From positions 1 through 60,114 of the forward strand of contig JBCCQK010000001.1 in NCBI GenBank assembly GCA_039024375.1: 60,114 nt of DNA. Direction: 5' to 3'. The DNA comes from Bacteroidota bacterium (GTDB lineage: Bacteria; Bacteroidota; Bacteroidia; Chitinophagales; Saprospiraceae). Positions within the stretch are counted from its first letter, which is position 1. The number at the start of each line of letters is the position of its first letter. Positions 6,928 through 58,184 of this stretch are shown in pieces. A model generated the notes under the pieces. It worked only from the letters and a program-made list of their open reading frames with translations, had not been told where the DNA came from and did not search any database. The position numbers and the translations under genes are program-made.

Positions 6928-6956
6928 AAATAACTTCGAAAAGTAATACCACAACA

Positions 6957-9392: not shown

Positions 9393-9436
9393 GTTCTCGG
9401 TGAATGCTCGTCTGGAGATGAGTAGATAGCGATTTC

Positions 9437-9615: not shown

Positions 9616-9825
9616 AAAATATCGGTTGTATGGTTATATTGTTCTCGTAACACTTTGGCCTACAACAACCAGCCCGCCTAGCGGCAGTCGGGCGGGTATA
9701 ACCATTTAACAATATAGCCATCTAGCAATTTTAATTTTAATTGCACTAATGCTTTCATTCAATTTGATGACTTTTGATACAACCTACATCAACCATTATT
9801 TTTTCACCACTGACAGACAAAAAAT

Positions 9826-12590: not shown

Positions 12591-12636
12591 ACTGAGAATT
12601 AGGCTTGTATGGAGTTTTTTCAAAAAAGACTAAATT

Positions 12637-12755
12637 AGGACTGATTCAATACAGATTGGGCAAGATTTAACTGATTTTTACAGATTTCAAACTCAAATGG
12701 CTGAAAAAATCAGCGAAAATCTGTCGAATCCGTTCAATCAGTGTTGAATAAAGTC
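12637..12755. repeat. Intergenic repeat family D (GATTCAATACAGATT / AAAATCTGT / CAATCAGTGTT word repeats, palindromic)
   Basis: The outer arms GGACTGATTCAA / TTGAATAAAGTCC are imperfect. Shares ATCAGTGTT and overall organisation with 45476-45545. Confidence 0.5.
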
Positions 12756-13034
12756 CCAATTTGTAAACGGTAGGTCGCTCCTTCTGAGCTAGCGTTCTCT
12801 CTCCATTCTTTTCACAGGGCTTTCACCTTGAGTTAACATATAGCACACCTTTGATGCGCATGCGTAACATTGGTAATAAGGTTGACCAAATCCGAACACT
12901 AGCTGTCCGATTGTGGACAAGAATTTAGGATTAGGAGGGTTTGTTATTTTCGCAGAATGTTGATTTATAATGGGTTATGATTTTGGTACAGACATTGGTT
13001 TCTATCAGGTAAGCCGTGAAAAATACAAAATGCC

Positions 13035-15413: not shown

Positions 15414-15434
15414 TTACAAGTTGTTCAGCACTCA

Positions 15435-15499
15435 TTTTTTACCACACAGAAATAGAGCTCACAAAGCGCATGGAGTTCTTTTTCGAGCGTAGTTTTGAC
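15435..15499 (+). repeat. Intergenic repeat family C, copy 2
   Basis: TTTTTTACCACACAGAAATAGAGCTCACAAAGCGCATGGAGTTCTTTTTCGAGCGTAGTTTTGAC. Confidence 0.6.
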
Positions 15500-15601
15500 T
15501 ACCGAGGAGTTCGATGTATCAAGGCTTCAGACCTGCTCGCAAGCATTCAAGCGGGCTTGATACGCATATTTGCAGGTCTCCTGACCTGCATGGAGTTGCC
15601 A

Positions 15602-15637
15602 CACTAGTCACTAGTCAACCAATCACTAATCACTAAC
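15602..15637 (+). repeat. Heptamer-periodic leader tract (CACTAGT CACTAGT CAACCAA TCACTAA TCACTAA) ending 4 nt before the start codon
   Basis: A near-identical tract in the same gene-relative orientation lies at 57407-57443, upstream of the NRPS-PKS start codon. Confidence 0.7.
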
Positions 15638-15640
15638 AAA

Positions 15641-18037: not shown

Positions 18038-18240
18038 TGCTGGATGCTGGTTTCTGGATGCTAGATACTAGTTTCTGGTTCCTAGACACTCGTAACTATG
18101 GTGCTGACACGATGACAAACATAAAATGAACCACTAGATTTCTATTGGTGTGCAGTCTCTAATGGGATTAAGTTTATCTAAGTCAGTACGGTCTGCACTA
18201 GTATCCAGAATCCAGTATCTAGAAACTAGCATCCAGCATC
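18035..18240. repeat. Palindromic intergenic element whose arms are 7-nt periodic (GATGCTG GATGCTG GTTTCTG GATGCTA GATACTA GTTTCTG ...)
   Basis: The left arm starts in the TGA stop of paralog 5. The right arm ...CCAGTATCTAGAAACTAGCATCCAGCATC ends 14 nt before the start of paralog 6. Confidence 0.7.
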
Positions 18241-18254
18241 AAAAACAAAAAATC

Positions 18255-42400: not shown

Positions 42401-45400
42401 AATCGACGCTCTACCGAATTAGCCGCTTCGAACCGTTCGTCTCCCAATTGGGTAGCCCGCAAAATAACCGTTCCCGCTTCTCCAGTCAACGTAATCGTGG
42501 TGCCCGAAATGGTAGCAGGGCCAGCAATAACGGCCAAATCAACTGGTAATCCTGAACTAGCACTAGCATTTACGGTGAAAGGCGCATCGGTAGTCATTTT
42601 ATCGGGAATCCCAAAAAAAGTAATCGCTTGGGGTTCTTTGCTTTTCCACGTAGACAGATGCTGTCCCGAAATAGGGCGGTCCAAACTTTTATCGGGCAAT
42701 TTCCAGCCTACCGAAAAATGTCCACCACCGTTCGCTAGGCCTTCGATGTAGTAATTGGTACCAGCGACCAGCAGAATAGGGTCAGACTGTTGACTTGCGT
42801 ATTTATTCCACTGGTTTGCTCGAGTGCTTTGCTTGACTAAGGCAATTTGTCGTTTATTTTTTGTCTGACCGTTCGTACTTAACCACAATTGGCTAGGTTC
42901 ATTACTAGCTATCCAGAAAGTATATAAACCCGTTTGTGGAGGGCAGATGAACCCACGAATCCTCTGAGTATTCTCGGAAGTAGTTAACGGACTGGCTTCA
43001 AAACGGTCCAATGTTGAAGTTTCATTAGGCTTTGTTTGAACGGGACCATTATCCGTTAAACTTTGCTGGCCATCCGTCCAAATATCTCTCGAAATTTTCC
43101 CGTCGGTAGCACAGTTCGCCGTGGAAGGTAGCACAAAGTTAAAACTACGTTCGATAGGGGTAGCGGGTCGATACGTACTATTTCCTCCTTGCGTTGCTCG
43201 AATTTTGACCCTTCCGGGGAAACCCGTCGAGACAATTTTATTGCCAAAAATAATGGCAGGCCCTTCCAATAAGTACATATTCACGGGCAGACCCGAAGTC
43301 GCCGTTGCGTTCAGTACCACCTCTCCCGTCGTAATCGGTTGGTCGGGAATTGGCGCACATTCAATGGTCTGCGCCAACCCACCACAATCGGGATAAATAT
43401 CTTTTTCGTAAACTGTAAACAAACCTTCGGGGTCCGTTACTTTTAGCGTTATTCGAAACCAGTAGGTCGAACCGTCGCACTCGACGGGCGAAAGGGAAGT
43501 AGTTGTGTTTGGTCGGCTATCAATCGGCTCGGCGTGTTCGTGGCCTTCGTGGAAAAGGCTCGTTTGCCATTCGTAACGCAATGAATTAGGGTGTTCCATA
43601 TCCCTTACCGTTGCGGATAAATTGAGGGTTGTTCCCGCAGCGGCCGAAAACCAATTTTGGTTATCAATACTAGTCGAAAGAATAACGGGCGGTGTGTTAT
43701 TTAACGAAATCGGAATGGTTTGCTCCGTTTGACCGCCTTGCGCATCTGTGACTTTTAACGTAACGGGATAGGTAGCGGGCGCATTTGAAGGAGCTTCGAA
43801 AATTACTTTAGGATTGATGTCCGTACTAGTCGCATTGTCCCCAAAATCCCACTCAAATTTTAGTGAACTGTATTCGGAGTCAAAAGATTGAGACGCATCA
43901 AATTGTACCGTTAGCGGACTAGTGCCGTAGGTTTGGTCAGCGTTAATAATGGCAACGGGGGGCTTATTTTGATTGCCTGTATAAGTGATTTTTCGAATTT
44001 GATTGGGGTAGCGCACGTAAAAAATGCCATTCTCCGCGGGAGAAACATTCATACAAACGACCGCTCCCGCATCCAATTTAAAGTCCTTGACAAAGGTTGG
44101 ATTATTCTGTTCGTCAAAACCAAAGTTTCTTATCCAGCCAGCACTGTAATCCGCATGAAAGTAGGTGTTTCGATAAGGTTCGGGAAAATCTTTCCCCGTG
44201 TACCAAACGCCCGCCGTAGAAGAGTTTCCTTGAAAAGGACGACCCTGAACAGCGCCATCTCCAATGACGGACATCTTACCGTTGATAAATGCCCTAGCTT
44301 GATTGGTCCCGTGTCGCCAATCAATTTTGGGCGGCGTATGTTCCGCTCTTCCCACATCGTATAATGGATTTTCGTAGCCCGCCTTTTGACTAATTCCTTC
44401 GTATATCGGCCAGCCAAAGTTTTGTCCAGGTGCATCGACTACGTTTAAGTCTTCCCAAGTGGACCAACCGACATCGCCAAAAATAAATGTTCCCGGTCGG
44501 CCGTCGGGAGCGTGGTGACTGCCCGATTCGGGTTTGATGGCCATGCGGTAAGGGTTGCGAATCCCAATGCTCCAAGTACGGGACTGGGGCGCTCGTGGAT
44601 TAGCTGAATCGTAATAAGGGTTGGAAGGTAAACCGTCGCCCGTTTCGGGGTCAATCCGCAGAATTTTACCACTCAAATTATTCAAGGACTGACAGCGATA
44701 GGCCCCGATATTTTGCTCGGGGGTAATAATGCCATCCGCTAATGCCTGTTGAAAATAGGTGGAAGGATGCGACCCTTCGTCGGCGGGGCTGGCGTAACTA
44801 GCTCCATCGCCAACGGTCACCATCAGAGTACCGTCGGTACCAAATAGAATTTGTCCCGCTCCGTGAGATTCGTGGAGAATCGGTGGTCCCGTCGATTTGC
44901 TTTCGCCAATTAGAATCTTTCTACTTCCATAGTCAATACTGGTAAAATTATCAGACGAGTTGGCAGTATATCGAGTAAGTCGAGCGATAGTCGCTTCCTT
45001 TTCGCTACTTACATCAGAGCGGTAATTATTAGTACCAAAGTTTAGCAAATGGTGTCGGTCCACGACGTACCATAAATAGAGGTGACCATTATTTAAAAAA
45101 TTGGGGTCTAAGGCAAAACCTACTAATCCGAAATCCCGCCAATTACCCACTTCTTCGCTGATGTCAATCAATGGCTCCGTACTTTTGATTCCTTTAGAAA
45201 CAGTCCAAACTTTTCCTCCTTTTTCCCAAACGTACATTCGTCCATTCTCGTCGAAAGTGACCCCAACGGCTTGATTCCAACCGTCAACAACCAATTCATC
45301 GGTAAATCCGTTGGGTTGCGCACAGATAGAAGAGAAACTTACGCACAGTAAAGCGAGTAGCCATAGCAAAGGGGGGCATTTTTTTTCGAAACCGAAAAAA

Positions 45401-45411
45401 GTGCAGTTCAT
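39478..45411 (-). CDS. Giant T9SS-secreted multidomain protein: PQQ-type sugar dehydrogenase-like beta-propeller, PKD-like domains, PA14-like domain, six Ig-like repeats, two GEVED-motif domains, T9SS C-terminal sorting domain
   Basis: Signal peptide. HESHGAGQILFGTDGTLMVTVGDG (SGDH-like). PLTVQFDAS (PKD). GFICPPQTGLYTFWIASN (PA14-like, ~42901-42960). Six ~77-aa repeats with TTDGPF...SSGLPV...GPA...TLTGE.GTV..RA.Q.GN. GEVEDY at ~40840 and ~40080. C-terminal LFPNP...GLYYVVIEVEGK. Confidence 0.85.
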   Translation of the reverse strand: MNCTFFGFEKKCPPLLWLLALLCVSFSSICAQPNGFTDELVVDGWNQAVGVTFDENGRMYVWEKGGKVWTVSKGIKSTEPLIDISEEVGNWRDFGLVGFALDPNFLNNGHLYLWYVVDRHHLLNFGTNNYRSDVSSEKEATIARLTRYTANSSDNFTSIDYGSRKILIGESKSTGPPILHESHGAGQILFGTDGTLMVTVGDGASYASPADEGSHPSTYFQQALADGIITPEQNIGAYRCQSLNNLSGKILRIDPETGDGLPSNPYYDSANPRAPQSRTWSIGIRNPYRMAIKPESGSHHAPDGRPGTFIFGDVGWSTWEDLNVVDAPGQNFGWPIYEGISQKAGYENPLYDVGRAEHTPPKIDWRHGTNQARAFINGKMSVIGDGAVQGRPFQGNSSTAGVWYTGKDFPEPYRNTYFHADYSAGWIRNFGFDEQNNPTFVKDFKLDAGAVVCMNVSPAENGIFYVRYPNQIRKITYTGNQNKPPVAIINADQTYGTSPLTVQFDASQSFDSEYSSLKFEWDFGDNATSTDINPKVIFEAPSNAPATYPVTLKVTDAQGGQTEQTIPISLNNTPPVILSTSIDNQNWFSAAAGTTLNLSATVRDMEHPNSLRYEWQTSLFHEGHEHAEPIDSRPNTTTSLSPVECDGSTYWFRITLKVTDPEGLFTVYEKDIYPDCGGLAQTIECAPIPDQPITTGEVVLNATATSGLPVNMYLLEGPAIIFGNKIVSTGFPGRVKIRATQGGNSTYRPATPIERSFNFVLPSTANCATDGKISRDIWTDGQQSLTDNGPVQTKPNETSTLDRFEASPLTTSENTQRIRGFICPPQTGLYTFWIASNEPSQLWLSTNGQTKNKRQIALVKQSTRANQWNKYASQQSDPILLVAGTNYYIEGLANGGGHFSVGWKLPDKSLDRPISGQHLSTWKSKEPQAITFFGIPDKMTTDAPFTVNASASSGLPVDLAVIAGPATISGTTITLTGEAGTVILRATQLGDERFEAANSVERRFEVTPPPRLPKVILNSPANGSSYTQNRLDVRYTLSGDLDFYEANHLLLTLDNQAPIDIHTLNGVYTLKNLSEGTHTLKLQLANSNHQPFNHASATKEVQFTIVPTEKEQQIDFPKLLDKLTTDGPFAIAATATSGLPVQFLLESGPAVLNGNVITLIGQPGTVAVRAIQTGNEEYQPAKDVVRSFDVQSPTIEQQSQSITFPAIPNKKTTDGPFAITASASSGLPVTFAIRTGPATVDGNVITLTGESGTVKVRASQAGNAQFKRAISYDRSFTVESVVPATQQLINFPSLANKLTTDGPFAIAATATSGLPVEFSILSGPATISNNIISLTGESGEVIVRASQRGNSQYLPAPFVDRPFTVSEPITTPPAVEEVNEVSSDYCTTESLFPWQEWIGRVNFGQLDHTSSKAVYTINDYTNLEYAKNERYLLQVIPNFSWTQWDEHISVWIDFNQNGRFEETESVLRAVSLSGVPPTASDGVSATILIPNTAKIGTTRMRVAMQRMEFSTPCEVVNQGEVEDYLISIVDSNSEVSVVEKQAQSINFPAIANQLTTTQTVLLAATATSNLPVSYQILSGPAEVNGNTLKLSGTEGTVVVSAQQAGNAQFLPAQSINRAFKVSSPIEQEETPDDVPATIENYCDAKGQSPWQEWIGRVQFHTLDHISSKEGYGDFTNKETTVERGQTYQLSVSPAFSWTQWDEHINVWIDFNQNGVFEVETELVLSGVSKAQTPNTNPQSVTEQITIPANAGIGTTRMRVAMRQTNAPETCGTFEFGEVEDYTIRIVSSSSSTDKQSLVFSAFLDPKQQVDLQWIASSNQSVLDYEVERSTDNIHFETLQNISLVPEALTATFYRSSDSSPLSGVTYYRVKQRHEDASFVYSNTVVVERAFAENEFYLFPNPVRRQLRLYVKPFLEKSAVITIYNSFGKRIHSQQTPYIETAFMNIDMQQTQNGLYYVVIEVEGKRAISRKFVVNRNY

Positions 45412-45813: not shown

Positions 45814-48800
45814 TTAAGTTTTAAATTTTAGATTTCTTTGATACTTTTCCTCCAATAACGCTTGGAGAATTTTAGCGAATTGCTCGCCATTGGGGGGATT
45901 GAATAGACTCAGGTGGTCTCCGGGGACATCCAAAGTATGGATTTTTCCTCGAATGTAAGGTTTCCATCCTAAAAATTGGTGGTCTTCGATAAAAAATCGT
46001 TGTTCTTCGGCTCGAAATAGGTGTAAATCACCTTCGTAGGGGGTAATGGTATAGTTTTTCCAGGCCTCAAAATTACTCTGATTGACAATCGATTCTAATT
46101 GCGTGTCTTGCTGCGTTTGGGTGTCTTTACCTTCCTTGAAAACTCGATATTTCCAGTTGTTTAACTTTCTTATATAGACATATTTTCGGTAACTGAAATT
46201 CTCTACGGGATTGGTTACCAAGTCTTTCAAGTTCCAAGCGACTTTCTTACCAATCGTACTCACTTTTTCTGAAAAAGAATGCTCGAAATTGGTTAATTCG
46301 GGTTTAATCACCGTATCAAATACGCTTAACAGTAACACTTCCTTGTTCGCTGCTTGCAATTGCTTGGCCATTTCAAAAGCAATTAATCCGCCAAAAGAAT
46401 AGCCCGCCAAAGCGTACGGTTGGTTGGGGTGCACTTGTTGAATCGCTTCAATATAATGACTCGCCATATCTTCAATTCTATCTAGCGGCTGTCCTTCCCC
46501 GTTCAGTCCTTTAGCTTGCAGGGCATAAATGGGCTGGTCGTCGTCCATATTAGCTGCTAAAGTTTGGAACATAAGCACGTGCAATCCGCCACCGTGAATC
46601 AAATAAAGCGGTGGTTTGCTACCCGTTGTTCTGATGGGTACTAGCGACCCTTCAAAGGTACGCTCCGCTTTTTTATCCAATAAATAACCTAATTGATTGA
46701 TGGTAGAATGTTGTAACAAAGCGGCCAATGGCACTCGCCTGCCCAATTTCTTTTCAATGCTGGCCATCATGCTAACGGCAATCAAAGAATGACCACCTAG
46801 TTCAAAAAAATCATCGTGGATGCTTATCGAATCTAAGTTCAGTAGGTCTTGCCAAATAGCCGCAAGCATTTTTTCGGTAGGCGACGTAGCGGCGCAGAAT
46901 ATCTTTTTCTTGGCAACGTTGGACCACTCTGGCACGGGTAATTTTTTCCTATCCACCTTCTGGGAAACCGTCATCGGAAAAGCATCCATCAAAACGAAAG
47001 CGGCTGGAATCATGTAGTCAGGTAATTGACCCTTTAAAAATTCTTTCAGTCCTTCAATGGAAAAAGTAGCTTGGTTGCGGACGATTAAATAGGCGGCTAA
47101 TCGTTTATCGTTCGGTTGGTCTTCTCGAACCATCACCCGATTTTCTTGCACTTCGCCGTATTGTCCAATGGCCGTTTCAATATCTCCCAATTCAATGCGA
47201 TACCCCCGAATTTTTACTTGCTTATCCCCTCGATTCAAATACTCGATATCTCCATTCGGCAAGTAGCGGCCACGGTCGCCCGTTCGATAAAGCGTTTGGT
47301 AATGTTTTTCGTCGGAAAAAGGATTAGGGACAAAAGTCTTATTCGTTAGTTCGGGAAGTTGATGATAACCATTCGGCGCTACGCCAACGCCCGCAATGTA
47401 AATTTCTCCACCTACGCCAATAGGCACGGGCTGCTGGGTTTGGTCCAAAATGTAAATTTTTACATTATTGATGGGACGCCCGACGGGCAAGTAGCCGAAA
47501 TTGTCTTCGGAAAACAAATGAGGTTGAATTTGCTTAGTTGTTGACCAAATAGTTGTTTCGGTGGGGCCGTAAATATTCCAAACTTCTTTAGTATTCGCCA
47601 ACAGTTGCTGTGCCAATTCTTTGGACAAACCTTCGCCCCCCGATAGCGCTCGCAACTGCGGACTATTGGTCCACCCCGCTAGAAGTAGCATCTGCCAAGT
47701 TGAAGGCGTGGCTTGCATTAGTGTAGGCTTCGTTTTTTCAATTAACTCCTTTAATAAGAAACCATCTTTTACGGCTTCTTTGTCAGCAATGATGACCGTT
47801 CCACCCACGAAAAGTGGCATAAAAAAGTCCTGTACCGATGGGTCAAAGGCAATCGAAGCAACGGCCAAAATTTTATCTTTTTCGTCAATTTTATATTTAT
47901 CAATAATCGCTGAATGGTGGTCAACTACCGCATAGTGCGGAATAGCGATTCCCTTAGGTTTTCCCGTTGAACCTGAAGTGTAAATAATATAGGCTGTGTC
48001 CGTCACCCGAGGCGTCGAACCATTTTGAATCAACGGTTGGAACGTATTTTCTAAACTATTTTCGTAAAAAAGAACCGTACCATCGAAGACAGGAATCTGG
48101 TTTTTCAACGGCTCGTGACTTATTAAAAAATCGGCTTTTACATCTTCTAAAATAGTAGCCAATCGTTCGGTCGGATTGATAGGGTCTAATGGAATATAGA
48201 TAGCGCCTAATTTCAAAACGGCTAGTAAACTTATCAACATTTCGGAAGAGCGCTCTAAATAAACCCCAACCTTTTTTCCTCTTTTAACTCTTTTTTGCTG
48301 AAAATAGCCCGCAAGAATAGTCGCCCGCTGATTTAATTCTTGATAAGTAACTAGCTCATTATTAAAGGTTAAGGCTGTTGCATTAGGAAATTGCTGCGCT
48401 TTTTGTTCAAAAAGTGTATGAATACAAACCGTTGGAAAGTTATCCACATTTGTGTCGTTCCAAGATGTTAATAACTTTTCTCGTTCCGATTCGGGTAGCA
48501 ATGGAAGTTGGGCAATAGGCTGATTGGGTTGCTCCAAAATGCCCTTTATCAAAGTGTCAAATTCCAGTAATCGACGTTGAATCGTTGACGTATCAAAAAG
48601 GTCGGTATTATAAATCCATTCGAAGGTAATGCCCGAAGCGTTCGTTTTTAAATTGATAAAAATATCGAAGGTCTCGTAATTGCGGGGAACGGCGCGAGTG
48701 GAAACTTTTAAGTCCCCAAAATTTAGTTGACTAAAATCGCTATCCAAGTTGAAAAGTACCGAAATAATGGGTTGCCGACTGGTGTCTCTAGGTAATTTTA

Positions 48801-51800
48801 ATTCCTTGACCAATGCGCCCAAGGTATAATTTTGGTGGTCAAAGGCATCCAGCATTTTAGTCCGTACTTTTTTCAGATGCGCTAGAAAAGTATCGGTAGC
48901 GTCAACGGTCATTTTCAGCGGAAGCAAACTAACGCTATGTCCCACCAAACCTTGATTACCCGCAATGGCTTGACCCGCCGCTACGACGCCTAAAGTGAAC
49001 GTTTCCTGTTGGGAAAGCCGATGAATGAACGTTTGAAAAGCGGCGAACATAAAATTGTAAAAAGTGGCGCCTTGTTTAGCCGCTAGTTGTTTAATATTTG
49101 TTTGCACATCGGCAGAAAAATGAATTTTTTCCATCGCCGAAGCATACGTCTTCACGGGCGGACGTAGGCGGTCCGTCGGAAAAGCTAAAACGGGAATATC
49201 GTCGGCAAATTCTTTTTTCCAATAATTAACCGACTGTCGATAGGCCTCCGATTCTTTCGCTTTTGCGACTTCTAAAGCGTACCTACTTAGTTGCTTGGGT
49301 GCGGTCAACGGTTGATGCTTTTTACCAACTAATTTAGCGTAAAGCGTTCCCAAATCCGTGCTTAAGATTCCCAACGACCAACCGTCGGCGATGATGTGAT
49401 GCACCGTAATGATGACTAAATGAACGTCGTCGGCCAAACGAATGATTTGAAAACGAGACAGCGGGCCTTGGAATAAATCCATTGGGGTTTCGGCCTCCTG
49501 TTGGTGAATATCGGATAGGGTTAGGGACTTTTCTCCATTGGCCAAATCAATAAAAGGAATCGACATTTCAAAGTTGAGGGCAATGATTTGGGTTTTCCCA
49601 TCTTCACTAAAAGTCGTGCGCAATGCTTCGTGTCGGTCAACTAGCTGCTGAATGGCGGTGCGCATTTTTTCGAGGTCCAAATTTCCCTCCAACCGGATTT
49701 CAGTCGCCAAATTATACGCCGAAGCCGCTTCGGAGTTGAACTGGTGTCCAATCCAAATTTCCTCCTGCCCGTCCGTCAACGGAACAATTTTAGGTTGGGT
49801 TGGGTCAACGGCTAAACCCATCAATTCGGGGTCAATAATTTCGTTTAAATCTTCGCCGTGCCATTCCATGAAGAATTGTCGGTCAAACATCTCGGCAATC
49901 GCCGTTTGGTAAATTTGATAGACTTTATCTAAATCTGCGTCGGAATGTTCGGTCGATAAAAATCCCGCTCTTTCGGTCATATACACGCCGTGGTGACGCA
50001 TGACGTGAAAGAATATTTTGGACAACGGGTAATCGTCGATGACTTTCACCGCTAAGATGGAAGAAGCCGATTTTATGGCTAGAGGTGCTTTCGTTGCTCG
50101 GAAAAGTTGGGCCAACCGTTTGGCGAAAGCCTTGGTTCTACGGTTTAAGTTGAATTGCAGTTGTGGCCCATTTGCTTTTAACTGTTCTAAAACTGCCTTG
50201 GCTGCCGCTAAACTCACGGGATGTTTAACGTACGTCCCACCAAAAAAAGTAACCATCGCTTCGGGGAACGAATCGTCACCGAATTGCCACTGACCGCCAT
50301 CGAAGGCATCCAAATATTTAGCCTTCCCCGCCAACATCGCAATGGGTAAGCCGCCACCCGCAATTTTCCCGTAAGCGCATAAATCCGCCTCGACGCCGTA
50401 CCAGCCCTGTGCGCCCGTTTGGGTCGCCCGAAATCCCGTTACACATTCGTCATAAACCAGCGCAATATCTTTTTGAGTAGCAATACTTCTCAATTGTTCC
50501 AATACTACTTTTCGCTGTAAGTGCGGTGTTTGGGTGTGAAAAGGTTCAACAATAATCGCCGCCAAATCATCGGCATTATCTTCGATAACGTCCATCAGAT
50601 TTGGGTCATCATAGTAGAGTACTAATACATTTGAAACCGCCGATTCTGGAATGCCCGGCGCAATCGTCATAGACTTCGTTCGTCCTTTCAATTGAACACC
50701 CCTTACTAGCATTTCGTCAGCGATACCGTGGTAGTCTCCTTCAAAAACGGCTACTTTTTCTCGACCCGAAACGGTTCGGGTGGCTCTAATGGCGGCGGAG
50801 ATGGCTTCCGAACCCGTATTGACCAAGGTCGCCCGTTCCATGCCCGTCACTTCACAGAGTAACTCAGCCACTTCCTTGGCCAACGGTGGTAAAACGGCTA
50901 ATTCCGTTCCTTTTTGCATTTGTTCAATGACCGCCGTTTGCACAAAATCGGGCGTGTGACCGAAGAGACCAATACCAAAACTCATTAGAAAATCGATGTA
51001 TTCGTTTCCGTCCACGTCCCACATTTTAGAGCCTTTGGAACGAGTCATGGCGATTTGGTAAACGGCGTCTTTCCACAGTTTATTGAAGGCTTGAATGGAG
51101 CGTGGGTCGGATAAATATTGCCGTTGCACTTGACTCAATCGTTTCGACCCTTGGGTTTTCTGATTGTATTTTTTTATAAAATCCGCTAGTTGCCTTTGTT
51201 GAAAATCCGTTAGTTCCGAGACACCTTTCGGAATAGGTTTCCAAGGACCGAAGCCTTTTGACTTATCTGCATCGCTTACTTTTGGAGGTAGGGAAGTTAA
51301 TTTTTGGGGCGTGGGAGACGGTATTTTTCGGGGTGAATTTTGAGCGGTACTTATTTGGGTTGGCACCGGCACATTAGTGGTCGTTCCACTTCCTTTCAGC
51401 AGGTCTAATTGCTGCTGCATGATTTGCAACTGTTGGTTGATGACCGTTTGTAAGGTGCTATTATTAGTCGTCGAGGTGGTTGGTGACACAATTGTTGTGG
51501 GGGTAACCGTATTTTGAACGATTACTGGTGGCAGAAATAAGTCTTTGGCTAGAGTTTCATCCACGTACTCAGCTAATCGCTCAATGGTGGAAGCGTCTTC
51601 AAAAAGTTTCCGAAAGGTAATGGCTAGCTGAAATTTCCGATTAAACTTCGTGACCGCTTGGGTCAAAAATAAGGAGTCAAAGCCAAGTTCTAAAAAGGTG
51701 GCTTCGTTGTCCATCTCTTCGGCTTCCAAGCCACTCAGTTCGAATAAAATTTCTTTGATGAGGTCAATCAGATGGTCTTTTCTAGTCATCGTCTGGGGTT

Positions 51801-54800
51801 TTATAGGAATTGTCGAAGTAATAGGTTGAACAGTAAAATGGAGGGGCTGTTCCACTGGCGTAACTCCAGAGGTTGGAATTGTCTGTTTGGTCAAGGCGGG
51901 CGCTATCCAATGTCTTTTTCGTTCGAAAGGGTAAGTAGGTAAAGGGACTTTGGCGGGGGAAAATGGTTCGTAATATTTATTCCAATCAATAGCTACGCCG
52001 TTACACCACAATTTTCCTAGCGTTTTTTGCAAAAAAGCCACATCATCAATCGTTTCCTTAGGGTGTCGAACCGACGAATAAATGGATTGCGTTTTATCTT
52101 TTTTAGGATGCTGCCGAGCAAAAGTAGCCAATGTTTGACCGGGGCCAACTTCTAGTAAAAGGCCATTTTTTTCTTTTAAAATAGTGGCCAAACCATCCGA
52201 AAAACGCACCGTTTGTCGAAGGTGGCGTACCCAATAATCGGGCGTTACCATTTCTTCGGGAAGCGCCCAATTTCCATTGACGTTGGAAATGACTGGAATG
52301 ATTGGTGGATGAAAACTAATGCCTTTTAGAAAGGCGCTAAATTCGGGAATGATGGGTTCAATTTGTGCCGAATGAGCGGCCACATCAATGTGTATTTTGC
52401 TCGCTTCTATCCCCCGTTGGGTTAGCTTTTGGTGTAAATGATTTATCGCTTCGACGGTTCCCGAAACTACACAATTATTGGGTTTATTGATGACCGAGAT
52501 GCTTGTTTTATCGGACAAATAGGGCGATAGTTCCTTTTCCGAGAGGGAAACGCTTAACATACTCCCCGCTGCCGATAAACCTTCAAAAAGCTGTCCCCGC
52601 TTGACGACTATCCGCAAACCGTCTTCCCAAGAAAATACACCCGCCAAGCAAGCAGCGGTGTATTCGCCCATGCTGTGGCCAATCATTTGGTCGGGTTCGA
52701 TTCCCCAATTTTGCCAGAGTTTAGCTAAAGCGTACTCGACAGTAAAAAGCGTGGCTAAGGCGTTGGTCGGTCGCTGAATGGCCGATTTATGTTCGTTGGT
52801 CGCTGATATGGTTTCGGTAAAAAGCAATGGTGCAATATCCAGTTCCCATTCCTTTTTTAGAAAATCTGCACAGCTATCCACCTGCTCTCGAAAGGTTGGA
52901 AAAGCGATATAAAGTCCCTTTGCCATTCCCACGTACTGCGCTCCACCACCGGGGAAAAGGAAGGTGATTTTGGAGGCAGTATTACCACTTTTTAACTGAT
53001 TTTTAAAAGTAGCAGTAGGTTTATCAGAATTATTTGATGAGTAAATATTGCTCAATCGATAGTTGAAAGCGGCTCGCCCCGTAGCTAACGTATAAGCAAC
53101 ATCTACAAGACGAATGTCTGGTTTTCTTTCTAGAAAAGCGGTCAATTGTGCCTGCTGCTCGTTCAAAGATGATTCACTTTTTGCGGAAAGCAATAATAAA
53201 TTAAAATTAGGAGTAGGAATCGTTTTGGTGTTTTCTTTAACTGCTGGTGCTTCTTCTAAAATTAAGTGCGCATTGGTACCACCTAAACCGAAAGAACTAA
53301 CCCCCACTCGTCGAATCCGTTCACCTTTTTCCCAACGTTGCAATCGGTCGTTGACGTAGAAAGGAGAATTGGCAAAATCTATTTGTGGATTGGGTTTTTC
53401 AAAGTTCAATGATGGTGGCAGCAACTCATATTTCAAGGACAAAGCCGTTTTAATAATCCCCACTAAACAAGACCCAGCATCAAGGTGACCAATGGCCGTT
53501 TTGACGGAACCAATGGCACAGTATTGTTTTTTATCCGTATGCTTTCGAAAGGCTTTGGTGAGTCCCGCCACTTCAATTGGGTCACCTAAAATAGTTCCCG
53601 TCCCGTGCGCTTCCACGTAGTCGATAGCGTCCGCCGATAGATTAGCTTTGGCCAAAGCGGTCGTAATCGCATCCGATTGTCCTTTGATACTTGGTGCTGT
53701 AAACCCTATTTTTTCATTACCATCATTATTGATGGCCGTTCCTTTAATAACTGCCCAAACATGGTCTCTATCTTCAAGTGCACGGTCTAGCTTTTTTAAA
53801 ACAATACTTACCATTCCGTTTCCTCGTACCATTCCCTTTGCTTCGGCATCAAAAGCTCGGAGATAGCCGTCGGGAGACAAGGGTCCACCTTCCACATAAT
53901 CGTAACCTGCTTGCAAATCGGGCTGAATTCGGCCACCACTCACGAGTACCATATCCGAATCGCCGTTCAAGATACTTTGGCAAGCGAGATGAACGGCCGT
54001 CCCCGAAGTAGAGCAAGCGGTTTGCACATTTACGGCGGGCCCCTTCAAGTTCAATTGATAGGCTACTCGGCTGATGGCAAAGGTTTTTTCACTGCCTAGC
54101 GTGTCTTGATATTCCCCTGCCGTTGCTAATAAATCGGGATGGGTTGCAATATTACCGGAAAAGTAAGAGTTGCGGGCAACGCCTCCGAATATGCCGATTT
54201 TACCTTTGTATTCGTAAGGATTACAGCCCGCACTTTCCAAAGCTGCGTAAGCTACCTCTAATAAAACTCGGTGCTGCGGGTCCATCATCGCTGCCTCTTT
54301 GGGATAATAGCCAAAAAAAGCCGCATCGAAACACGCCAAATCGTCGAGCGATAAAGTTCTGGCGACTCGGTTGGTCCGTTTTAGGAGTTCTTCGCCTTGT
54401 CCTAATGCTTCCAAATCGGCGGCCGTTACGGCTCGACTTACATCTTTTCCGTTGACCAAATTCAACCAGAATTCGTGTAGCGAATTGGCGCCCGGTAAAC
54501 GGCAAGCCATGCCAATAATGGCGATGTCGGACGAGGAGAAACTACTCTTAATTGGTTGTTTTTTAGGTAAGTTTTCTTGTGTATCAAGTGGCATTTCGTA
54601 CCCTAAGTCCTTCGCTAAAGTAAGCGTTTCGATATTTAATTGCTGTATATTTTTAGGTGAAGGAGTAGCGGCTTTTTGGGCGTTTATTTTTGTAAATTTC
54701 AAAAGGTTGCTATCGCTCATTGAGCGGGATTCGGCGTGAATCCCATTGATGTTTTTTGTTTCAATGTTTTGGTAAGGAGTCAGTAAATCGGGGTGAAAAG

Positions 54801-57390
54801 GCAGGTCAATTTGCTGACAAAGCGCCTTCATCATTTCCTCGGGCCGTTGCACCAACGCTTCGTACTGCAATCGAAATTGCTGATTCTGCGGAATTTTCTG
54901 TAAAAACTGTTGAATATTTCGATGGCTTTCCAACCAAACCAACTCTCCTAGTTCTTTCGAATTATACCGATGATTTTTTAGATACAGCACTTGTTCCATG
55001 TGGTACTTTTCGAAAGAATGAACCATGGATTGTGGATGGCGTACTAAATGAATAAAAATGGGATTATCAAAGTTTTGGTGGATATTTTCTAGTGTTGCTG
55101 CGTCCAAAGCGTAGGCGGGCGTTTTGTCCACAATGATTTTGGGAGCCGCCCACGTTTGCAATTGTTGGTAAAAATCTAAAGTAGTAGCGCCGTCCATTTC
55201 CCATTGTCGAATGGTTGCTTTCGCTTCGTCCACGCTGCAATTTTTCAGTTGCATCACCGCCCGAACGGCGCCTTCTTGCCAAAGCTCGAATTTGCCAACG
55301 TAGGCTTGATTGCGCTCCGCCAAAGTCGAGAATCCCAATAATTTTAGTTCGTTGAAAGCAACTAAATCGGGATGACCCGCCAGCATTAAACTCAATAGAC
55401 TAGTCCCCGAACGGGGCGGCGCTAGTATAAAAATAGCCGATGGGTTTTTTATAGCGATTGGTGTCGGCGCAGTAGAAGTGGGAAGGTATTTTTTGAAATC
55501 GGCAATTTGTACCGCAGTTAACCTACTTTCTTCTTCCTTAGCGCTAGCTACACTTTTCTTCGTTTGAATAGCTAATTCTTTCGCGTAGTCTTTAGTTAAA
55601 AATTGAGCATACTCGGCAATCGTTGGATGGTTAAAAATCGTTGTGACAAAAATGGACGTATTCAGTTTTTTTTGCCATTGTCCGATAAATTGAGCCGCTT
55701 GAATTGAAGTACCACCTAGTTCAAAAAACTTATCGTGGCGGCCAATGCCGTCTATTTGTAAAATGGATTCCCAAGATTTTGCTAGTTTCTTTTCCAAATC
55801 ACCTTTTAGAGTAGTATAAGCTTGTGCCAATTTGGGACGACTGCTCGGTGGTAATGGCAACGCCTTTCGGTCGAATTTTCCATTTGGAGTTAGAGGCATT
55901 TTGGCTAAAGTCACAAAACGAGTAGGTAGCATATAGGGCGGTAACTGCTGCGCCAAAAAATCCCGTAGTTCGCTGATGGTTACCGCATTTTCACTGTTCT
56001 CGGTCAAATAGGCTACTAACATTTTTTGACGATTATTGTCGTCTGTTCGAAGCACGACCACCGTTTCTTTAACACTCGGATGCTGCCCAATTGCCGTTTC
56101 TATTTCTCCCAATTCTATTCGATAGCCGTTGAACTTTACTTGAAAGTCGGCTCTGCCCAAAAATTCGACGCTATCGTCGGGTGACCACTTGGCCAAATCG
56201 CCCGTTTTGTACAGCGTTTTTCCCCCACGAATTGCTTGAAAAGGGTTGTTAATAAATCGTTCGGCAGTCAGTTCAGACCGATTCCAGTATCCTTTTCCAA
56301 CTACGTCTTTTGCGCCGCCAATGTAAATTTCGCCCACCTCCTCCTTACCAACTTCTTGTAGCTGTTCATTCAAGATGAAAATTTCGTAGTTAGCAATTGG
56401 AAAACCAATGGGTACTTTAGCTGCTGCGAACCCTTTCGGTATTTTAAAAAAAGTACAGTTGACGGTCGCTTCCGTTGGGCCGTATAAATTGTACAATTGA
56501 CAGTTAGTTAGTAACTGTTCGTGTCGTTGGGCTAAAGAAGTTGGGCAAACTTCTCCCGATACGTTGATGAGTTCGAGAGATTGTAATTTTTGGGGATTGG
56601 CTTGTTCTAGAATTAACGTATGCAAGGAAGGCAGCGTGAGTAGGTGGGAAATCTGCTGCCGCTCAATCGTATTGGCTAACTGCTGGATATCCTTTTCTTC
56701 GTCCTGTCGAGGAATTACTAAGGTTGCCCCTTGATAGAAGGTCCAAAAAATGGTCAACACCGATACGTCAAAAGAAATGGAACAAGTCAGCAACATTTTA
56801 TGGATAGGATTGGGCGCAATTTGCTGTTGCCCTTCTAATTGATTCATTACGTTTTGGTGGCTAATCATCACCCCTTTAGGACGCCCCGTTGACCCCGACG
56901 TGTAAATCATATACGCCAAGTCGGTAGATTGATTGACTTTTTGGTAAGGTTTCGAGAAGTCTGGTTCTAATATCTGTTGAATCTTCTCTATAAAAACCAA
57001 TTCAGTAGGCAGTCCTAAAAGATTACTTTTAAAAGCACTTTGTGTAATAACTATTTTAGCTTGGGCATCTTCCACCATAAATCGAACCCTCTCCTTCGGG
57101 TAAGCCACATCAATTGGTACGTAGGCCGCTCCTGCCTTTTGAATCCCAATAATTGTTACCAATAATTCTAAAGAGCGTTCCAAATGAAAGGCCACAAAAT
57201 CGCCTCTTTGAACGCCTTTTGCTTGTAGATAGCTAGCCAATTGGGTTGATTGTTGGTCTAGGGCAGCGTAAGTCAGCACTTGATTTTCGAAAATCAACGC
57301 TGCTTGATTAGGCGTTACAGCCGCATAGTGCTCGACCAATTCGGGTAGGAGGGTATTCTTTCCAAAAAATGTTACGTTTTTTGAGGACAT
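45814..57390 (-). CDS. Hybrid NRPS-PKS megasynthase, 3,858 aa: A-PCP-ST-KS-AT-ACP-AMT-C-A-PCP-TE
   Basis: Approximate nucleotide spans from hand translation follow. A1 55860-57390 (LAYMIYTSGSTGRPKG, NLYGPTE, YKTGDL, NGKFDRKALP). PCP1 55600-55830 (FFELGGTS). Sulfotransferase-like 54700-55450 (FILAPPRSGTSLL, LVRHPQSMVHS). KS 53245-54525 (TACSTS, EAHGTGT, KTAIGH). AT 52020-52975 (GHSMGEY). ACP 51540-51790 (LGFDSL). PLP aminotransferase 49880-51230 (AYGKIAGGGLP). C 48480-49790 (HHIIADGWS). A2 46950-48450 (AYIIYTSGSTGKPKG). PCP2 46690-46900 (FFELGGHS). TE 45850-46640 (GYSFGG, PGDH). Confidence 0.9.
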   Translation of the reverse strand: MSSKNVTFFGKNTLLPELVEHYAAVTPNQAALIFENQVLTYAALDQQSTQLASYLQAKGVQRGDFVAFHLERSLELLVTIIGIQKAGAAYVPIDVAYPKERVRFMVEDAQAKIVITQSAFKSNLLGLPTELVFIEKIQQILEPDFSKPYQKVNQSTDLAYMIYTSGSTGRPKGVMISHQNVMNQLEGQQQIAPNPIHKMLLTCSISFDVSVLTIFWTFYQGATLVIPRQDEEKDIQQLANTIERQQISHLLTLPSLHTLILEQANPQKLQSLELINVSGEVCPTSLAQRHEQLLTNCQLYNLYGPTEATVNCTFFKIPKGFAAAKVPIGFPIANYEIFILNEQLQEVGKEEVGEIYIGGAKDVVGKGYWNRSELTAERFINNPFQAIRGGKTLYKTGDLAKWSPDDSVEFLGRADFQVKFNGYRIELGEIETAIGQHPSVKETVVVLRTDDNNRQKMLVAYLTENSENAVTISELRDFLAQQLPPYMLPTRFVTLAKMPLTPNGKFDRKALPLPPSSRPKLAQAYTTLKGDLEKKLAKSWESILQIDGIGRHDKFFELGGTSIQAAQFIGQWQKKLNTSIFVTTIFNHPTIAEYAQFLTKDYAKELAIQTKKSVASAKEEESRLTAVQIADFKKYLPTSTAPTPIAIKNPSAIFILAPPRSGTSLLSLMLAGHPDLVAFNELKLLGFSTLAERNQAYVGKFELWQEGAVRAVMQLKNCSVDEAKATIRQWEMDGATTLDFYQQLQTWAAPKIIVDKTPAYALDAATLENIHQNFDNPIFIHLVRHPQSMVHSFEKYHMEQVLYLKNHRYNSKELGELVWLESHRNIQQFLQKIPQNQQFRLQYEALVQRPEEMMKALCQQIDLPFHPDLLTPYQNIETKNINGIHAESRSMSDSNLLKFTKINAQKAATPSPKNIQQLNIETLTLAKDLGYEMPLDTQENLPKKQPIKSSFSSSDIAIIGMACRLPGANSLHEFWLNLVNGKDVSRAVTAADLEALGQGEELLKRTNRVARTLSLDDLACFDAAFFGYYPKEAAMMDPQHRVLLEVAYAALESAGCNPYEYKGKIGIFGGVARNSYFSGNIATHPDLLATAGEYQDTLGSEKTFAISRVAYQLNLKGPAVNVQTACSTSGTAVHLACQSILNGDSDMVLVSGGRIQPDLQAGYDYVEGGPLSPDGYLRAFDAEAKGMVRGNGMVSIVLKKLDRALEDRDHVWAVIKGTAINNDGNEKIGFTAPSIKGQSDAITTALAKANLSADAIDYVEAHGTGTILGDPIEVAGLTKAFRKHTDKKQYCAIGSVKTAIGHLDAGSCLVGIIKTALSLKYELLPPSLNFEKPNPQIDFANSPFYVNDRLQRWEKGERIRRVGVSSFGLGGTNAHLILEEAPAVKENTKTIPTPNFNLLLLSAKSESSLNEQQAQLTAFLERKPDIRLVDVAYTLATGRAAFNYRLSNIYSSNNSDKPTATFKNQLKSGNTASKITFLFPGGGAQYVGMAKGLYIAFPTFREQVDSCADFLKKEWELDIAPLLFTETISATNEHKSAIQRPTNALATLFTVEYALAKLWQNWGIEPDQMIGHSMGEYTAACLAGVFSWEDGLRIVVKRGQLFEGLSAAGSMLSVSLSEKELSPYLSDKTSISVINKPNNCVVSGTVEAINHLHQKLTQRGIEASKIHIDVAAHSAQIEPIIPEFSAFLKGISFHPPIIPVISNVNGNWALPEEMVTPDYWVRHLRQTVRFSDGLATILKEKNGLLLEVGPGQTLATFARQHPKKDKTQSIYSSVRHPKETIDDVAFLQKTLGKLWCNGVAIDWNKYYEPFSPAKVPLPTYPFERKRHWIAPALTKQTIPTSGVTPVEQPLHFTVQPITSTIPIKPQTMTRKDHLIDLIKEILFELSGLEAEEMDNEATFLELGFDSLFLTQAVTKFNRKFQLAITFRKLFEDASTIERLAEYVDETLAKDLFLPPVIVQNTVTPTTIVSPTTSTTNNSTLQTVINQQLQIMQQQLDLLKGSGTTTNVPVPTQISTAQNSPRKIPSPTPQKLTSLPPKVSDADKSKGFGPWKPIPKGVSELTDFQQRQLADFIKKYNQKTQGSKRLSQVQRQYLSDPRSIQAFNKLWKDAVYQIAMTRSKGSKMWDVDGNEYIDFLMSFGIGLFGHTPDFVQTAVIEQMQKGTELAVLPPLAKEVAELLCEVTGMERATLVNTGSEAISAAIRATRTVSGREKVAVFEGDYHGIADEMLVRGVQLKGRTKSMTIAPGIPESAVSNVLVLYYDDPNLMDVIEDNADDLAAIIVEPFHTQTPHLQRKVVLEQLRSIATQKDIALVYDECVTGFRATQTGAQGWYGVEADLCAYGKIAGGGLPIAMLAGKAKYLDAFDGGQWQFGDDSFPEAMVTFFGGTYVKHPVSLAAAKAVLEQLKANGPQLQFNLNRRTKAFAKRLAQLFRATKAPLAIKSASSILAVKVIDDYPLSKIFFHVMRHHGVYMTERAGFLSTEHSDADLDKVYQIYQTAIAEMFDRQFFMEWHGEDLNEIIDPELMGLAVDPTQPKIVPLTDGQEEIWIGHQFNSEAASAYNLATEIRLEGNLDLEKMRTAIQQLVDRHEALRTTFSEDGKTQIIALNFEMSIPFIDLANGEKSLTLSDIHQQEAETPMDLFQGPLSRFQIIRLADDVHLVIITVHHIIADGWSLGILSTDLGTLYAKLVGKKHQPLTAPKQLSRYALEVAKAKESEAYRQSVNYWKKEFADDIPVLAFPTDRLRPPVKTYASAMEKIHFSADVQTNIKQLAAKQGATFYNFMFAAFQTFIHRLSQQETFTLGVVAAGQAIAGNQGLVGHSVSLLPLKMTVDATDTFLAHLKKVRTKMLDAFDHQNYTLGALVKELKLPRDTSRQPIISVLFNLDSDFSQLNFGDLKVSTRAVPRNYETFDIFINLKTNASGITFEWIYNTDLFDTSTIQRRLLEFDTLIKGILEQPNQPIAQLPLLPESEREKLLTSWNDTNVDNFPTVCIHTLFEQKAQQFPNATALTFNNELVTYQELNQRATILAGYFQQKRVKRGKKVGVYLERSSEMLISLLAVLKLGAIYIPLDPINPTERLATILEDVKADFLISHEPLKNQIPVFDGTVLFYENSLENTFQPLIQNGSTPRVTDTAYIIYTSGSTGKPKGIAIPHYAVVDHHSAIIDKYKIDEKDKILAVASIAFDPSVQDFFMPLFVGGTVIIADKEAVKDGFLLKELIEKTKPTLMQATPSTWQMLLLAGWTNSPQLRALSGGEGLSKELAQQLLANTKEVWNIYGPTETTIWSTTKQIQPHLFSEDNFGYLPVGRPINNVKIYILDQTQQPVPIGVGGEIYIAGVGVAPNGYHQLPELTNKTFVPNPFSDEKHYQTLYRTGDRGRYLPNGDIEYLNRGDKQVKIRGYRIELGDIETAIGQYGEVQENRVMVREDQPNDKRLAAYLIVRNQATFSIEGLKEFLKGQLPDYMIPAAFVLMDAFPMTVSQKVDRKKLPVPEWSNVAKKKIFCAATSPTEKMLAAIWQDLLNLDSISIHDDFFELGGHSLIAVSMMASIEKKLGRRVPLAALLQHSTINQLGYLLDKKAERTFEGSLVPIRTTGSKPPLYLIHGGGLHVLMFQTLAANMDDDQPIYALQAKGLNGEGQPLDRIEDMASHYIEAIQQVHPNQPYALAGYSFGGLIAFEMAKQLQAANKEVLLLSVFDTVIKPELTNFEHSFSEKVSTIGKKVAWNLKDLVTNPVENFSYRKYVYIRKLNNWKYRVFKEGKDTQTQQDTQLESIVNQSNFEAWKNYTITPYEGDLHLFRAEEQRFFIEDHQFLGWKPYIRGKIHTLDVPGDHLSLFNPPNGEQFAKILQALLEEKYQRNLKFKT

Positions 57391-57406
57391 CGCATTGTAG
57401 TCTAGG

Positions 57407-57443
57407 TAGTGATTGGTGACTAGTTGATTAGTGACTAGTTAGA
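57407..57443 (-). repeat. Heptamer-periodic leader tract upstream of the NRPS-PKS start (minus-strand reading AACTAGTCACTAATCAACTAGTCACCAATCACTAC)
   Basis: Same words and gene-relative orientation as 15602-15637. Confidence 0.7.
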
Positions 57444-57475
57444 CAGAGTGCTGATTTTCAACCGTTTGTGCTACT

Positions 57476-57483
57476 CAAAAGTA
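57476..57483 (-). promoter_or_regulatory. Candidate Bacteroidetes-type -7 promoter box (TACTTTTG = TAnnTTTG) for the NRPS-PKS gene
   Basis: Motif match on the minus strand about 86 nt upstream of the ATG. No clear -33 TTTG at the expected spacing. Confidence 0.25.
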
Positions 57484-57505
57484 AGTTCTTAATAATTACT
57501 TAGCT

Positions 57506-57609
57506 GGTAGCACAGCCTTTAGGCTGTCCTGTTCACAAGCCTTTAGGCTTGGACTATCTTGCAAAGGTCTAAAGACCTTTTAACCTGACAGCCTAAAGGC
57601 TGTGCTACC
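57506..57609. repeat. Palindromic element with perfect 23-bp arms (GGTAGCACAGCCTTTAGGCTGTC / GACAGCCTAAAGGCTGTGCTACC) enclosing smaller palindromes (AGCCTTTAGGCT, AGGTCTAAAGACCT)
   Basis: Read directly. Lies about 115-220 nt upstream of the NRPS-PKS start. Confidence 0.8.
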
Positions 57610-57897
57610 GATTGGGAACTTTCGATTAAAAAATATTAAATCACCTCATGTTCTAACTTGAACAAATAGTCAGTTAAATTTGTAGGGGGATTTTTCGATG
57701 AAGCGGCTTTGGATAAAGCCAATAAGTAGGCGTGATTGTTTTTTTATCACGAATTGCAGTGGTGGTGGAAATGGGAGTAGGTATAAGTTCTTATCGACAA
57801 ATTTACAAAAAAAAGTGGTTTAAAGGAAGAACGGATTGCAGTGGGGTACAAAATAGTGTAAGGTGTGTTTGGGGATTGGGTTCCAAGACCTACAGAA

Positions 57898-57952
57898 TGG
57901 CTATATTGTTGTATGGTTATATTGTTTGGCAGCCATATAGCCATACAACAAT
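57898..57952. repeat. Hairpin built from ATGGYTATATTGTT words
   Basis: TATTGTTGTATGGTTATAT / ATATAGCCATACAACAATA. Related words occur at 9625-9643 and 9696-9721. Confidence 0.6.
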
Positions 57953-58023
57953 ACAATTACACAATTAGTAGCTTTTTTGATGCTTATTAAAATGATTTGT
58001 AGCTGCTTAGCGCATTTTTCACC

Positions 58024-58113
58024 ATAAAGTCCATACAGTTCATAGAGTCCATAAAGTTTTTTTCGAGCGTTAGTATCGACTATTTCGAGCGTTAGTATTG
58101 ACTATTTTGTACT
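58024..58113 (+). repeat. Intergenic repeat family C, copy 3, with a tandem duplication of the 3' module (TTTCGAGCGTTAGTATYGACTA x2)
   Basis: TTTTCACCATAAAGTCCATACAGTTCATAGAGTCCATAAAGTTTTTTTCGAGCGTTAGTATCGAC aligns with copies 1 and 2. Confidence 0.6.
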
Positions 58114-58184
58114 GTTTAAGCGTTTTCAATGCAGGGTGGTAAGTAGGTACAATGATTTTTTAGATATGAACTGCATGGGGAATA

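Follow-up and report, generated by a model that had tools for sequence, protein, structure and literature searches.

A one-gene NRPS-PKS-NRPS assembly line with an in-line CurM-type sulfotransferase and a MycA-type aminotransferase in Saprospiraceae-related bacteria

What does a sulfotransferase do when it is built into the amino acid-loading module of a peptide assembly line, directly ahead of a polyketide module with its own aminotransferase? The question is raised by one gene in a stretch of 60,114 nucleotides from a Bacteroidota bacterium of the Saprospiraceae (GenBank assembly GCA_039024375.1, contig JBCCQK010000001.1, positions 1 to 60,114), referred to here as the window. At 45814..57390 on the minus strand, an uninterrupted frame from ATG to stop (3,858 amino acids, approximately 11.6 kb) encodes a megasynthase of the nonribosomal peptide synthetase (NRPS)-polyketide synthase (PKS)-NRPS type. 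Its domains are, in order, adenylation (A), peptidyl carrier protein (PCP), sulfotransferase (ST), ketosynthase (KS), acyltransferase (AT), acyl carrier protein (ACP), aminotransferase (AMT), condensation (C), a second A and PCP, and thioesterase (TE). Chance cannot account for an open frame of 11.6 kb in which eleven domains follow one another in order. We read the gene as a working three-module line in which a hydroxy amino acid would be sulfonated, extended, transaminated, joined to a Gly-like residue and released, and in this overall reading our confidence and our doubt are about evenly balanced.

The domain order was determined with the Pfam models, which gave AMP-binding, PP-binding, Sulfotransfer_3, KS, AT, PP-binding, Aminotran_3, Condensation, AMP-binding, PP-binding, and Thioesterase across the protein. 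An NCBIfam scan of the synthase agreed with these assignments, and no product-specific model scored above its cutoff. The loading module consists of A1 (residues 20–505; 55876..57333, minus strand as for all domains of the synthase), which matched AMP-binding and TIGR01733, and of PCP1 (residues approximately 530–600; 55591..55803), in which Ser562 lies in the motif FFELGGTSI starting at residue 555. The ST domain follows at residues 651–940 (54571..55440). In the PKS module, the KS (residues 954–1331; 53398..54531; Pfam ketoacyl-synt) had the Cys-His-His triad in TACST, EAHGTG, and KTAIGH, the AT (residues 1476–1766; 52093..52965; Acyl_transf_1) had GHSMG, continued as GHSMGE, and is probably malonyl-specific, and the ACP (residues approximately 1873–1945; 51556..51774; PP-binding) had Ser1906 in LGFDSL starting at residue 1902. 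The AMT domain occupies residues 2061–2500 (49891..51210). The last module is formed by the C domain (residues 2534–2974; 48469..49791), with HHIIADG, by A2 (residues approximately 2991–3484; 46939..48420), assigned by TIGR01733 and its specificity code, and by PCP2 (residues 3509–3567; 46690..46866), with Ser3535 in FFELGGHSL starting at residue 3528. The protein ends in a type I TE (residues 3594–3843; 45862..46611) with GYSFGG and PGDH, the latter containing the GDH signature. A3 core motifs were located at residues 161 and 3135, together with A10 motifs, and the catalytic motifs were complete in the KS, AT, C, and TE domains and in all three carrier domains. The domain string, and the intactness of every catalytic motif listed, had both been read from the DNA letters in a first-pass annotation, and the Pfam and motif scans returned the same order and the same motifs.

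The two domains that set this line apart were assigned by hidden Markov models (HMMs) and by comparison with the sequences of known structures. The Sulfotransfer_3 match (residues 651–866) scored 95.7 bits against a cutoff of 27. The ST region aligned end to end (query residues 21–317) with the sequence of the CurM ST structure 4gbm at an E-value of 1.4e-53, and likewise along its full length with the olefin-synthase ST 4gox at 6.8e-45. The ST of the window contains the loop for 3'-phosphoadenosine 5'-phosphosulfate (PAPS) as PPRSGTSLL, the context of the catalytic Glu as NELKLL, and the motifs DKTP and LVRHP; the columns conserved across its relatives and CurM were PRSG(S/T)xLL, (E)L, DK(T/S)P, and LVRHP. 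These comparisons identified the domain, at the level of sequence, as a predicted PAPS-dependent O-sulfotransferase of the CurM family. The STs of CurM, the olefin synthase OLS, and HlaB sulfate a carrier-bound beta-hydroxyl group with PAPS and thereby make a leaving group (PMC11730487; PMC6274090).

The Aminotran_3 match covered residues 2112–2472, and the AMT region aligned with the MycA aminotransferase structure 6kfm at an E-value of 4.6e-105. The lysine that binds pyridoxal 5'-phosphate (PLP) was retained, with YGKIAGGG in the window aligned to YGKIIGGG in MycA. The domain was thus identified as a class-III, MycA-type PLP aminotransferase predicted to convert a beta-keto group to a beta-amine. 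Domains of the MycA type carry out this conversion on ACP-bound beta-keto groups. The first-pass annotation had proposed both the ST and AMT assignments, had likened the ST to those of CurM and olefin synthase, and had compared the KS-AT-ACP-AMT-C segment with MycA; the HMM and structure matches bore out each of these points, and the order of the segment was identical to that of MycA.

To describe the substrates of the line, we compared the specificity codes of the A domains. The codes depend on a large alignment to a GrsA reference sequence, and this reference reproduced the canonical code DAWTIAAICK. Both codes begin with D and end with K, and Asp235 and Lys517 (GrsA numbering) are kept in both domains; therefore, A1 and A2 are amino acid-activating domains and not fatty-acyl ligases. 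The best matches of A1 in the PDB were NRPS A domains, GrsA-PheA (1amu) among them. The A1 code of the window clade, DVLLNSLVNK, has D, V, S, L, V, and K in common with the Ser code and is Ser-derived; it equals none of the codes known to us. The A2 code, DPQQLGIIWK, was identical to the Gly code DILQLGLIWK at seven of ten positions. Outside Saprospiraceae, canonical Ser codes (DVWH[IF]SL[VI]DK) were found at A1 of seven lines (L059, L061, L064, L067, L070, L076, and L077), and canonical Gly codes (DILQLGM[VI]WK) at A2 of the lines L001, L048, L075, and L077, in which A2 lay inside the fetched flank. We propose a hydroxylated starter because lines of the same architecture in other phyla carry canonical Ser codes. 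At least three types of A2 code occurred across the family, and the family would therefore make several related products.

The position of the ST was examined in a wider set of proteins. When 1.84 billion cluster representatives were searched exhaustively with HMMER, 936 proteins reached E <= 1e-30; leaving aside those that the earlier ST-domain search had returned, the 146 closest of them provided 154 ST contexts for a tally. The ST stood behind a carrier domain in 134 of these 154 contexts, and in 113 it stood behind a pair of A and carrier (thiolation, T) domains. What followed the 113 A-T-ST units was the protein end (45 cases), a C domain (35), a TE (21), a KS (10), or another carrier domain (2). 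Some synthetases held two or three A-PCP-ST modules (seen among P0028–P0173 and in L073, L078, L079, and L082), and free-standing PCP-ST and A-PCP-ST proteins were encoded beside KS-AT-ACP-AMT-C proteins. Together, the A-T-ST contexts and the free-standing proteins show that, in evolutionary terms, the ST goes with the aminoacyl-PCP unit rather than with the PKS portion. In the line of the window, as always in the family, the ST is fused behind the loading PCP, and its position suggests that it most likely acts on the cargo of the PCP that precedes it. The codes before the ST were enriched for hydroxy amino acids: approximately 21 were Thr codes (DFWNIGMVHK and near variants), approximately 20 were Ser codes (DVWH[ILVF]SL[IV]DK), KS-linked lines included, and approximately eight were Tyr codes of the DAST[VI]AAVCK type. 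A minority were His-like, Lys-like, Gly, Ala, and others. As a separate observation, some of the 21 A-T-ST-TE termini were Thr- or Ser-coded; if these work like CurM, their products could end in C-terminal enamides formed through decarboxylative elimination.

On this basis, the following chemistry is proposed for the line. A1 would charge PCP1 with an amino acid that is polar and probably hydroxylated, and the ST would O-sulfonate the tethered aminoacyl group, as the aminoacyl counterpart of the CurM ST acting on a beta-hydroxyacyl-ACP. The KS and AT would then add one malonyl unit to give a gamma-amino-beta-ketoacyl-ACP, and the AMT would turn the ketone into an amine, resulting in a vicinal beta,gamma-diamine. 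A Gly-like residue would be added by C, A2, and PCP2, and the TE would then free the product, which would be very small, through hydrolysis or lactamisation. PAPS and a phosphopantetheinyl transferase (PPTase) of the Sfp type would be supplied from elsewhere in the genome.

The line works partly like CurM and Ols and partly like MycA, ItuA, and McyE, and is a member of neither group. With CurM (curacin A), Ols, and HlaB (haliamide) it shares a homologous ST placed directly after the carrier whose cargo it is expected to sulfonate, and, as in CurM, the hydroxyl to be sulfonated would occupy the position beta to the thioester in those relatives of the window line that load Ser. The three known STs, however, stand in ACP-ST-TE termini, those of CurM and OLS in a ketoreductase (KR)-ACP-ST-TE context at the end of a PKS, whereas the ST of the window is placed in a loading module, between an aminoacyl-PCP and a KS, with no KR; at this position, decarboxylative alkene formation is impossible. 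The order KS-AT-ACP-AMT-C-A-PCP is identical to that of the mycosubtilin (MycA), iturin (ItuA), and McyE synthetases, and the expected chemistry, beta-keto to beta-amino on the ACP followed by peptide bond formation, is shared with MycA. The starter of MycA is a fatty acid provided through a fatty acyl-AMP ligase (FAAL), whereas that of the window line would, from Asp235, be an alpha-amino acid, and the window line has an ST inserted ahead of the KS. MycA-type proteins pass their chain to further subunits and give a beta-amino fatty acid; the window line ends after one more residue with its own TE, has no partner synthetases nearby, and would give a beta,gamma-diamino acid. A conceptual precedent is the OciA-type loading module of the Planktothrix cyanopeptolin/oscillapeptin synthetase, in which an in-line ST acts on a carrier-bound hydroxylated starter and the sulfate is kept. 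In OciA, an FkbH-like domain loads glyceric acid as the starter, and that system has no PKS or AMT module. From the uncharacterised metagenomic A-PCP-ST modules, which share this unit with the window (41–57% ST identity) and occur before C, TE, or KS in hundreds of megasynthases, the window type differs in that the unit is joined with a PKS-AMT module into a line of three modules and one gene, whereas most of the others serve long NRPSs as ordinary modules for elongation or termination.

The first-pass annotation knew of no characterised synthetase that joins an amino acid-loading A-PCP, an internal ST, and an AMT in one polypeptide with a terminal TE. When GTDB species representatives were scanned with the ST-domain alignment, 418 relatives were found, the best 80 of which were mostly metagenome-assembled genomes (MAGs) of Saprospiraceae, and the eleven domains of the window were mapped onto these 80 loci. 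The complete order A-PCP-ST-KS-AT-ACP-AMT-C-A-PCP-TE was present in 37 species-representative genomes among them, nearly all uncultured Saprospiraceae or other Bacteroidota, and further loci were broken at contig ends. The architecture was therefore not unique to the window, and its ST part belongs to a class of in-line STs several hundred strong. Identity to the window was 41–84% per domain, and in the eleven Saprospiraceae-type loci with listed open reading frames (ORFs) the line was a single ORF of 3,849–4,096 amino acids. Complete single ORFs in 37 species representatives at this level of identity point to purifying selection over the whole line. Variants of the family had tandem ACPs, a terminal C domain replacing the TE, or lines split between proteins, the last in Chloroflexota and other phyla; Chloroflexota lines were split into A-PCP-ST and KS-AT-ACP-AMT-C proteins, and L001 into A / PCP-ST / KS-AT-ACP-AMT-C and following domains. 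Where contigs permitted checking, the pairing of ST with AMT was near-constant in the KS-type lines, and the only clear exception was L070, an Anaerolineaceae MAG, in which A(Ser)-PCP-ST is followed by KS-AT-ACP-TE (7964–14761) without AMT, C, or second A. As a minimal line of Ser plus one C2 unit with ST and TE, L070 could be the simplest system in which to follow the fate of the sulfate.

All database members of the family had generic names and came from MAGs or metagenomes. In the part of the literature that was covered, no characterised system had the same combination of domains, the nearest being CurM, OLS, and the haliamide-type ST-TE. Each domain type is known, and an ST on an amino acid-loading module that feeds a PKS-aminotransferase module appears to be a new combination. 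The architecture has been retained, as a pathway of one gene, by no fewer than 37 Saprospiraceae-related species, whose lineage is represented here by MAGs alone; this conservation suggests that natural selection probably acts on the product. Because the pathway would consist of a single gene plus a PPTase, it is unusually well suited to heterologous expression. A solved line would show whether CurM-type 'activating' sulfation was recruited into peptide assembly and would help to assign functions to the hundreds of A-PCP-ST modules that stand unannotated in metagenomes. The family is widespread and uncharacterised, and could uncover chemistry that is driven by sulfation within peptide assembly lines.

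The fate of the sulfate decides what the line would make. We tentatively prefer, at a probability a little short of even, that the sulfate serves as a leaving group. It would be lost through elimination, or one of the two amines would attack and displace it; the preference rests on the chemical lability of a sulfate in the beta position to a thioester or ketone. By analogy, expulsion would also agree with the precedent of the characterised homologues and with the near-constant pairing of ST and AMT in KS-type lines, and the argument from lability would hold if the starter is Ser-like. The alternative to which we attach appreciable, though minority, weight is that the sulfate ester is kept. The line would then make an O-sulfated mimic of a dipeptide, beta,gamma-diamino-acyl-(Gly-like), either linear or closed to a 7-membered lactam, and the sulfate would help the product to dissolve or to bind its target, as it does in other sulfated peptides. 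Tyr-coded A-PCP-ST modules, including A(Tyr)-T-ST-TE termini, speak for retention since elimination is impossible there, and three A1 code types feed the same downstream domains, which is easier to square with passive decoration. However, all characterised CurM-family STs make a leaving group (PMC11730487; PMC6274090), a Ser-like starter would place the sulfate beta to a thioester and then to a ketone, where fast loss through a conjugate-base elimination (E1cB) is expected on chemical grounds, and an ST ahead of the KS would be a poor design for keeping the sulfate. A further-reaching form of expulsion, which we regard as unlikely, is that a sulfate set by the ST on a Ser-like starter is displaced on-line by the AMT-installed amine or the alpha-amine to give an aziridine- or azetidine-type N-heterocycle, or an amino-enone; the A-PCP-ST class would then provide uncultured bacteria with a route, so far unrecognised and dependent on sulfation, by which their nonribosomal peptides acquire dehydroamino acids, enamides at the C terminus (A-T-ST-TE), or strained rings. 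Release by a CurM-like decarboxylative elimination at the TE was also considered, and was dropped because the TE of the window is unlike that of CurM. It is quite improbable, in our estimate, that the ST has some other target or N-sulfonates an amine, either the alpha-amine of the starter, as transient protection against premature lactamisation of the gamma-amino-beta-keto thioester, or the amine installed by the AMT, to form a sulfamate. A free gamma-amine beside a beta-keto thioester would be expected to self-cyclise, which makes protection attractive, and some codes before the ST (Gly, Ala, Lys-like, and His-like) offer no hydroxyl to sulfonate; but the closest characterised enzymes are O-sulfotransferases, the codes before the ST are mostly those of hydroxy amino acids, and the neighbour Pfam tally showed no sulfamidase or deprotecting enzyme conserved nearby.

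Several observations weigh against the preferred reading of a working line with an expelled sulfate. Its chemical steps are all inferred, from sequence and from knowledge of the families. The A1 code lacks His278 and Asp331 of the canonical Ser codes and has no known match, which weakens the case for a beta-hydroxy substrate in the window clade, and a second Saprospiraceae clade has the very different A1 code DGLLSAQVGK with the same downstream domains. Where Tyr, His-like, Gly, or Ala codes stand before other STs, the sulfate cannot be a beta-leaving group on the residue concerned, and these codes speak for simple sulfation by at least some members of the family. In the ST itself, His62 of CurM, which stands beside the catalytic Glu in ELHLL, is replaced by Lys in the window (NELKLL) and by Gln in most relatives (ELQLL). 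The TE lies 2,650 residues from the ST, gave no match when compared with the CurM TE, and is of a generic NRPS or fatty acid synthase type; among the domains of the synthase, none is dedicated to cyclisation or elimination, a lack that would also suit retention. Lastly, no PPTase was found across the 60 kb by tblastn and HMM searches, and no remnant of one in the 800-bp upstream gap, whereas an Sfp-type PPTase adjoins the synthase in 32 related loci and was the only widely conserved neighbour in the clustering of flanking ORFs and the nearest-neighbour Pfam tally. It is divergent and just upstream of the synthase in the closest relatives (L003–L008, at approximately 7200–7960) and downstream in approximately 25 other loci. 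The description of the gene as self-contained therefore held in part: the flanking genes are unrelated to secondary metabolism, but without the PPTase usual in its relatives the synthase gene is not strictly self-sufficient. The PPTase may be encoded elsewhere in the genome, of which only 60 kb are visible, or may have been lost by this copy. That the gene is silent or a decaying relic whose adjacent PPTase was lost, with nothing made, would fit the repeat-rich non-coding DNA now at that spot; we consider this very improbable, given a frame of 11.6 kb without a stop and with every catalytic residue intact, and a PPTase can be encoded anywhere in a genome.

The gap at 57391..58184, between the synthase and the next gene upstream, was gene-free and rich in repeats, and corresponds to the site of the PPTase in the closest relatives. 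A 116-nt element at 57500–57615, located 110–225 nt upstream of the ATG of the synthase, was predicted to fold into a branched hairpin of -65.6 kcal/mol (z = -9.4 against shuffled sequences). A 41-nt inverted repeat, within which AGCCTTTAGGCT mini-palindromes are nested, makes up this element. Elsewhere in the gap were tandem 15-mers (57410–57439), 22-mers (58061–58104), a 9-nt periodic segment (58023–58058), and inverted repeats (57897–57964). An Rfam search of the upstream region for riboswitches and known RNAs gave no match, and scans for promoters and terminators upstream of the synthase gave background levels only. The hairpin could be regulatory or an element resembling repetitive extragenic palindromes or miniature inverted-repeat transposable elements (REP/MITE-like). 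Similar 'stem-CTAAAG-stem' hairpins were seen in the intergenic DNA of L004, upstream of its PPTase. Parts of the hairpin (28–29 nt, 93% identity) also matched L037 at 14448–14476 and L025 at 7387–7414; in L037, and probably in L025, the match lies inside the open megasynthase ORF near the ACP-AMT linker. These two matches may be due to chance or to a palindromic insert tolerated in the linker.

Downstream of the synthase, the window encodes a T9SS (type IX secretion system) protein with GSDH, PKD, and GEVED domains, RlmN, a GH3/beta-lactamase fusion, SmpB, and a sigma factor; a hypothetical protein and an M42 peptidase lie upstream. The RlmN was 88% identical to proteins from Saprospiraceae MAGs and 77% identical to that of Flavilitoribacter nigricans, and the window is one whole metagenomic contig; its source is therefore an uncultured member of Bacteroidota of the Saprospiraceae type. 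The T9SS protein (39478–45411, minus strand) has 1,977 amino acids and is a predicted secreted protein with a GSDH beta-propeller, PKD, PA14, and two GEVED domains, and a T9SS sorting tail. A GSDH-type gene likewise lies directly downstream of the synthase in L004–L009, as a conserved synteny. In one Saprospiraceae subclade (L021, L023, L030, L033, L035, and L037), the 0–8 kb upstream of the synthase carried genes for a response regulator/sugar transferase, two GT2 proteins, a GDSL protein, an MBOAT protein, a protein of no assigned function, and an outer-membrane efflux protein. The same sugar-transferase gene adjoined the synthase in three Chloroflexota loci (L039, L061, and L070), in one of them together with Wzz, and L001 lay within an exopolysaccharide (EPS) cluster. 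This hints that some members of the family modify or accompany a surface polysaccharide. Such a link was ruled out as a general explanation, as only the PPTase was general in the neighbour tally and the window lacks these genes. Elsewhere in the window, at 4261–20714 on the plus strand, there were six consecutive paralogues of approximately 790–890 amino acids, and the three that were scanned had a MacB-like periplasmic core and FtsX permease domains.

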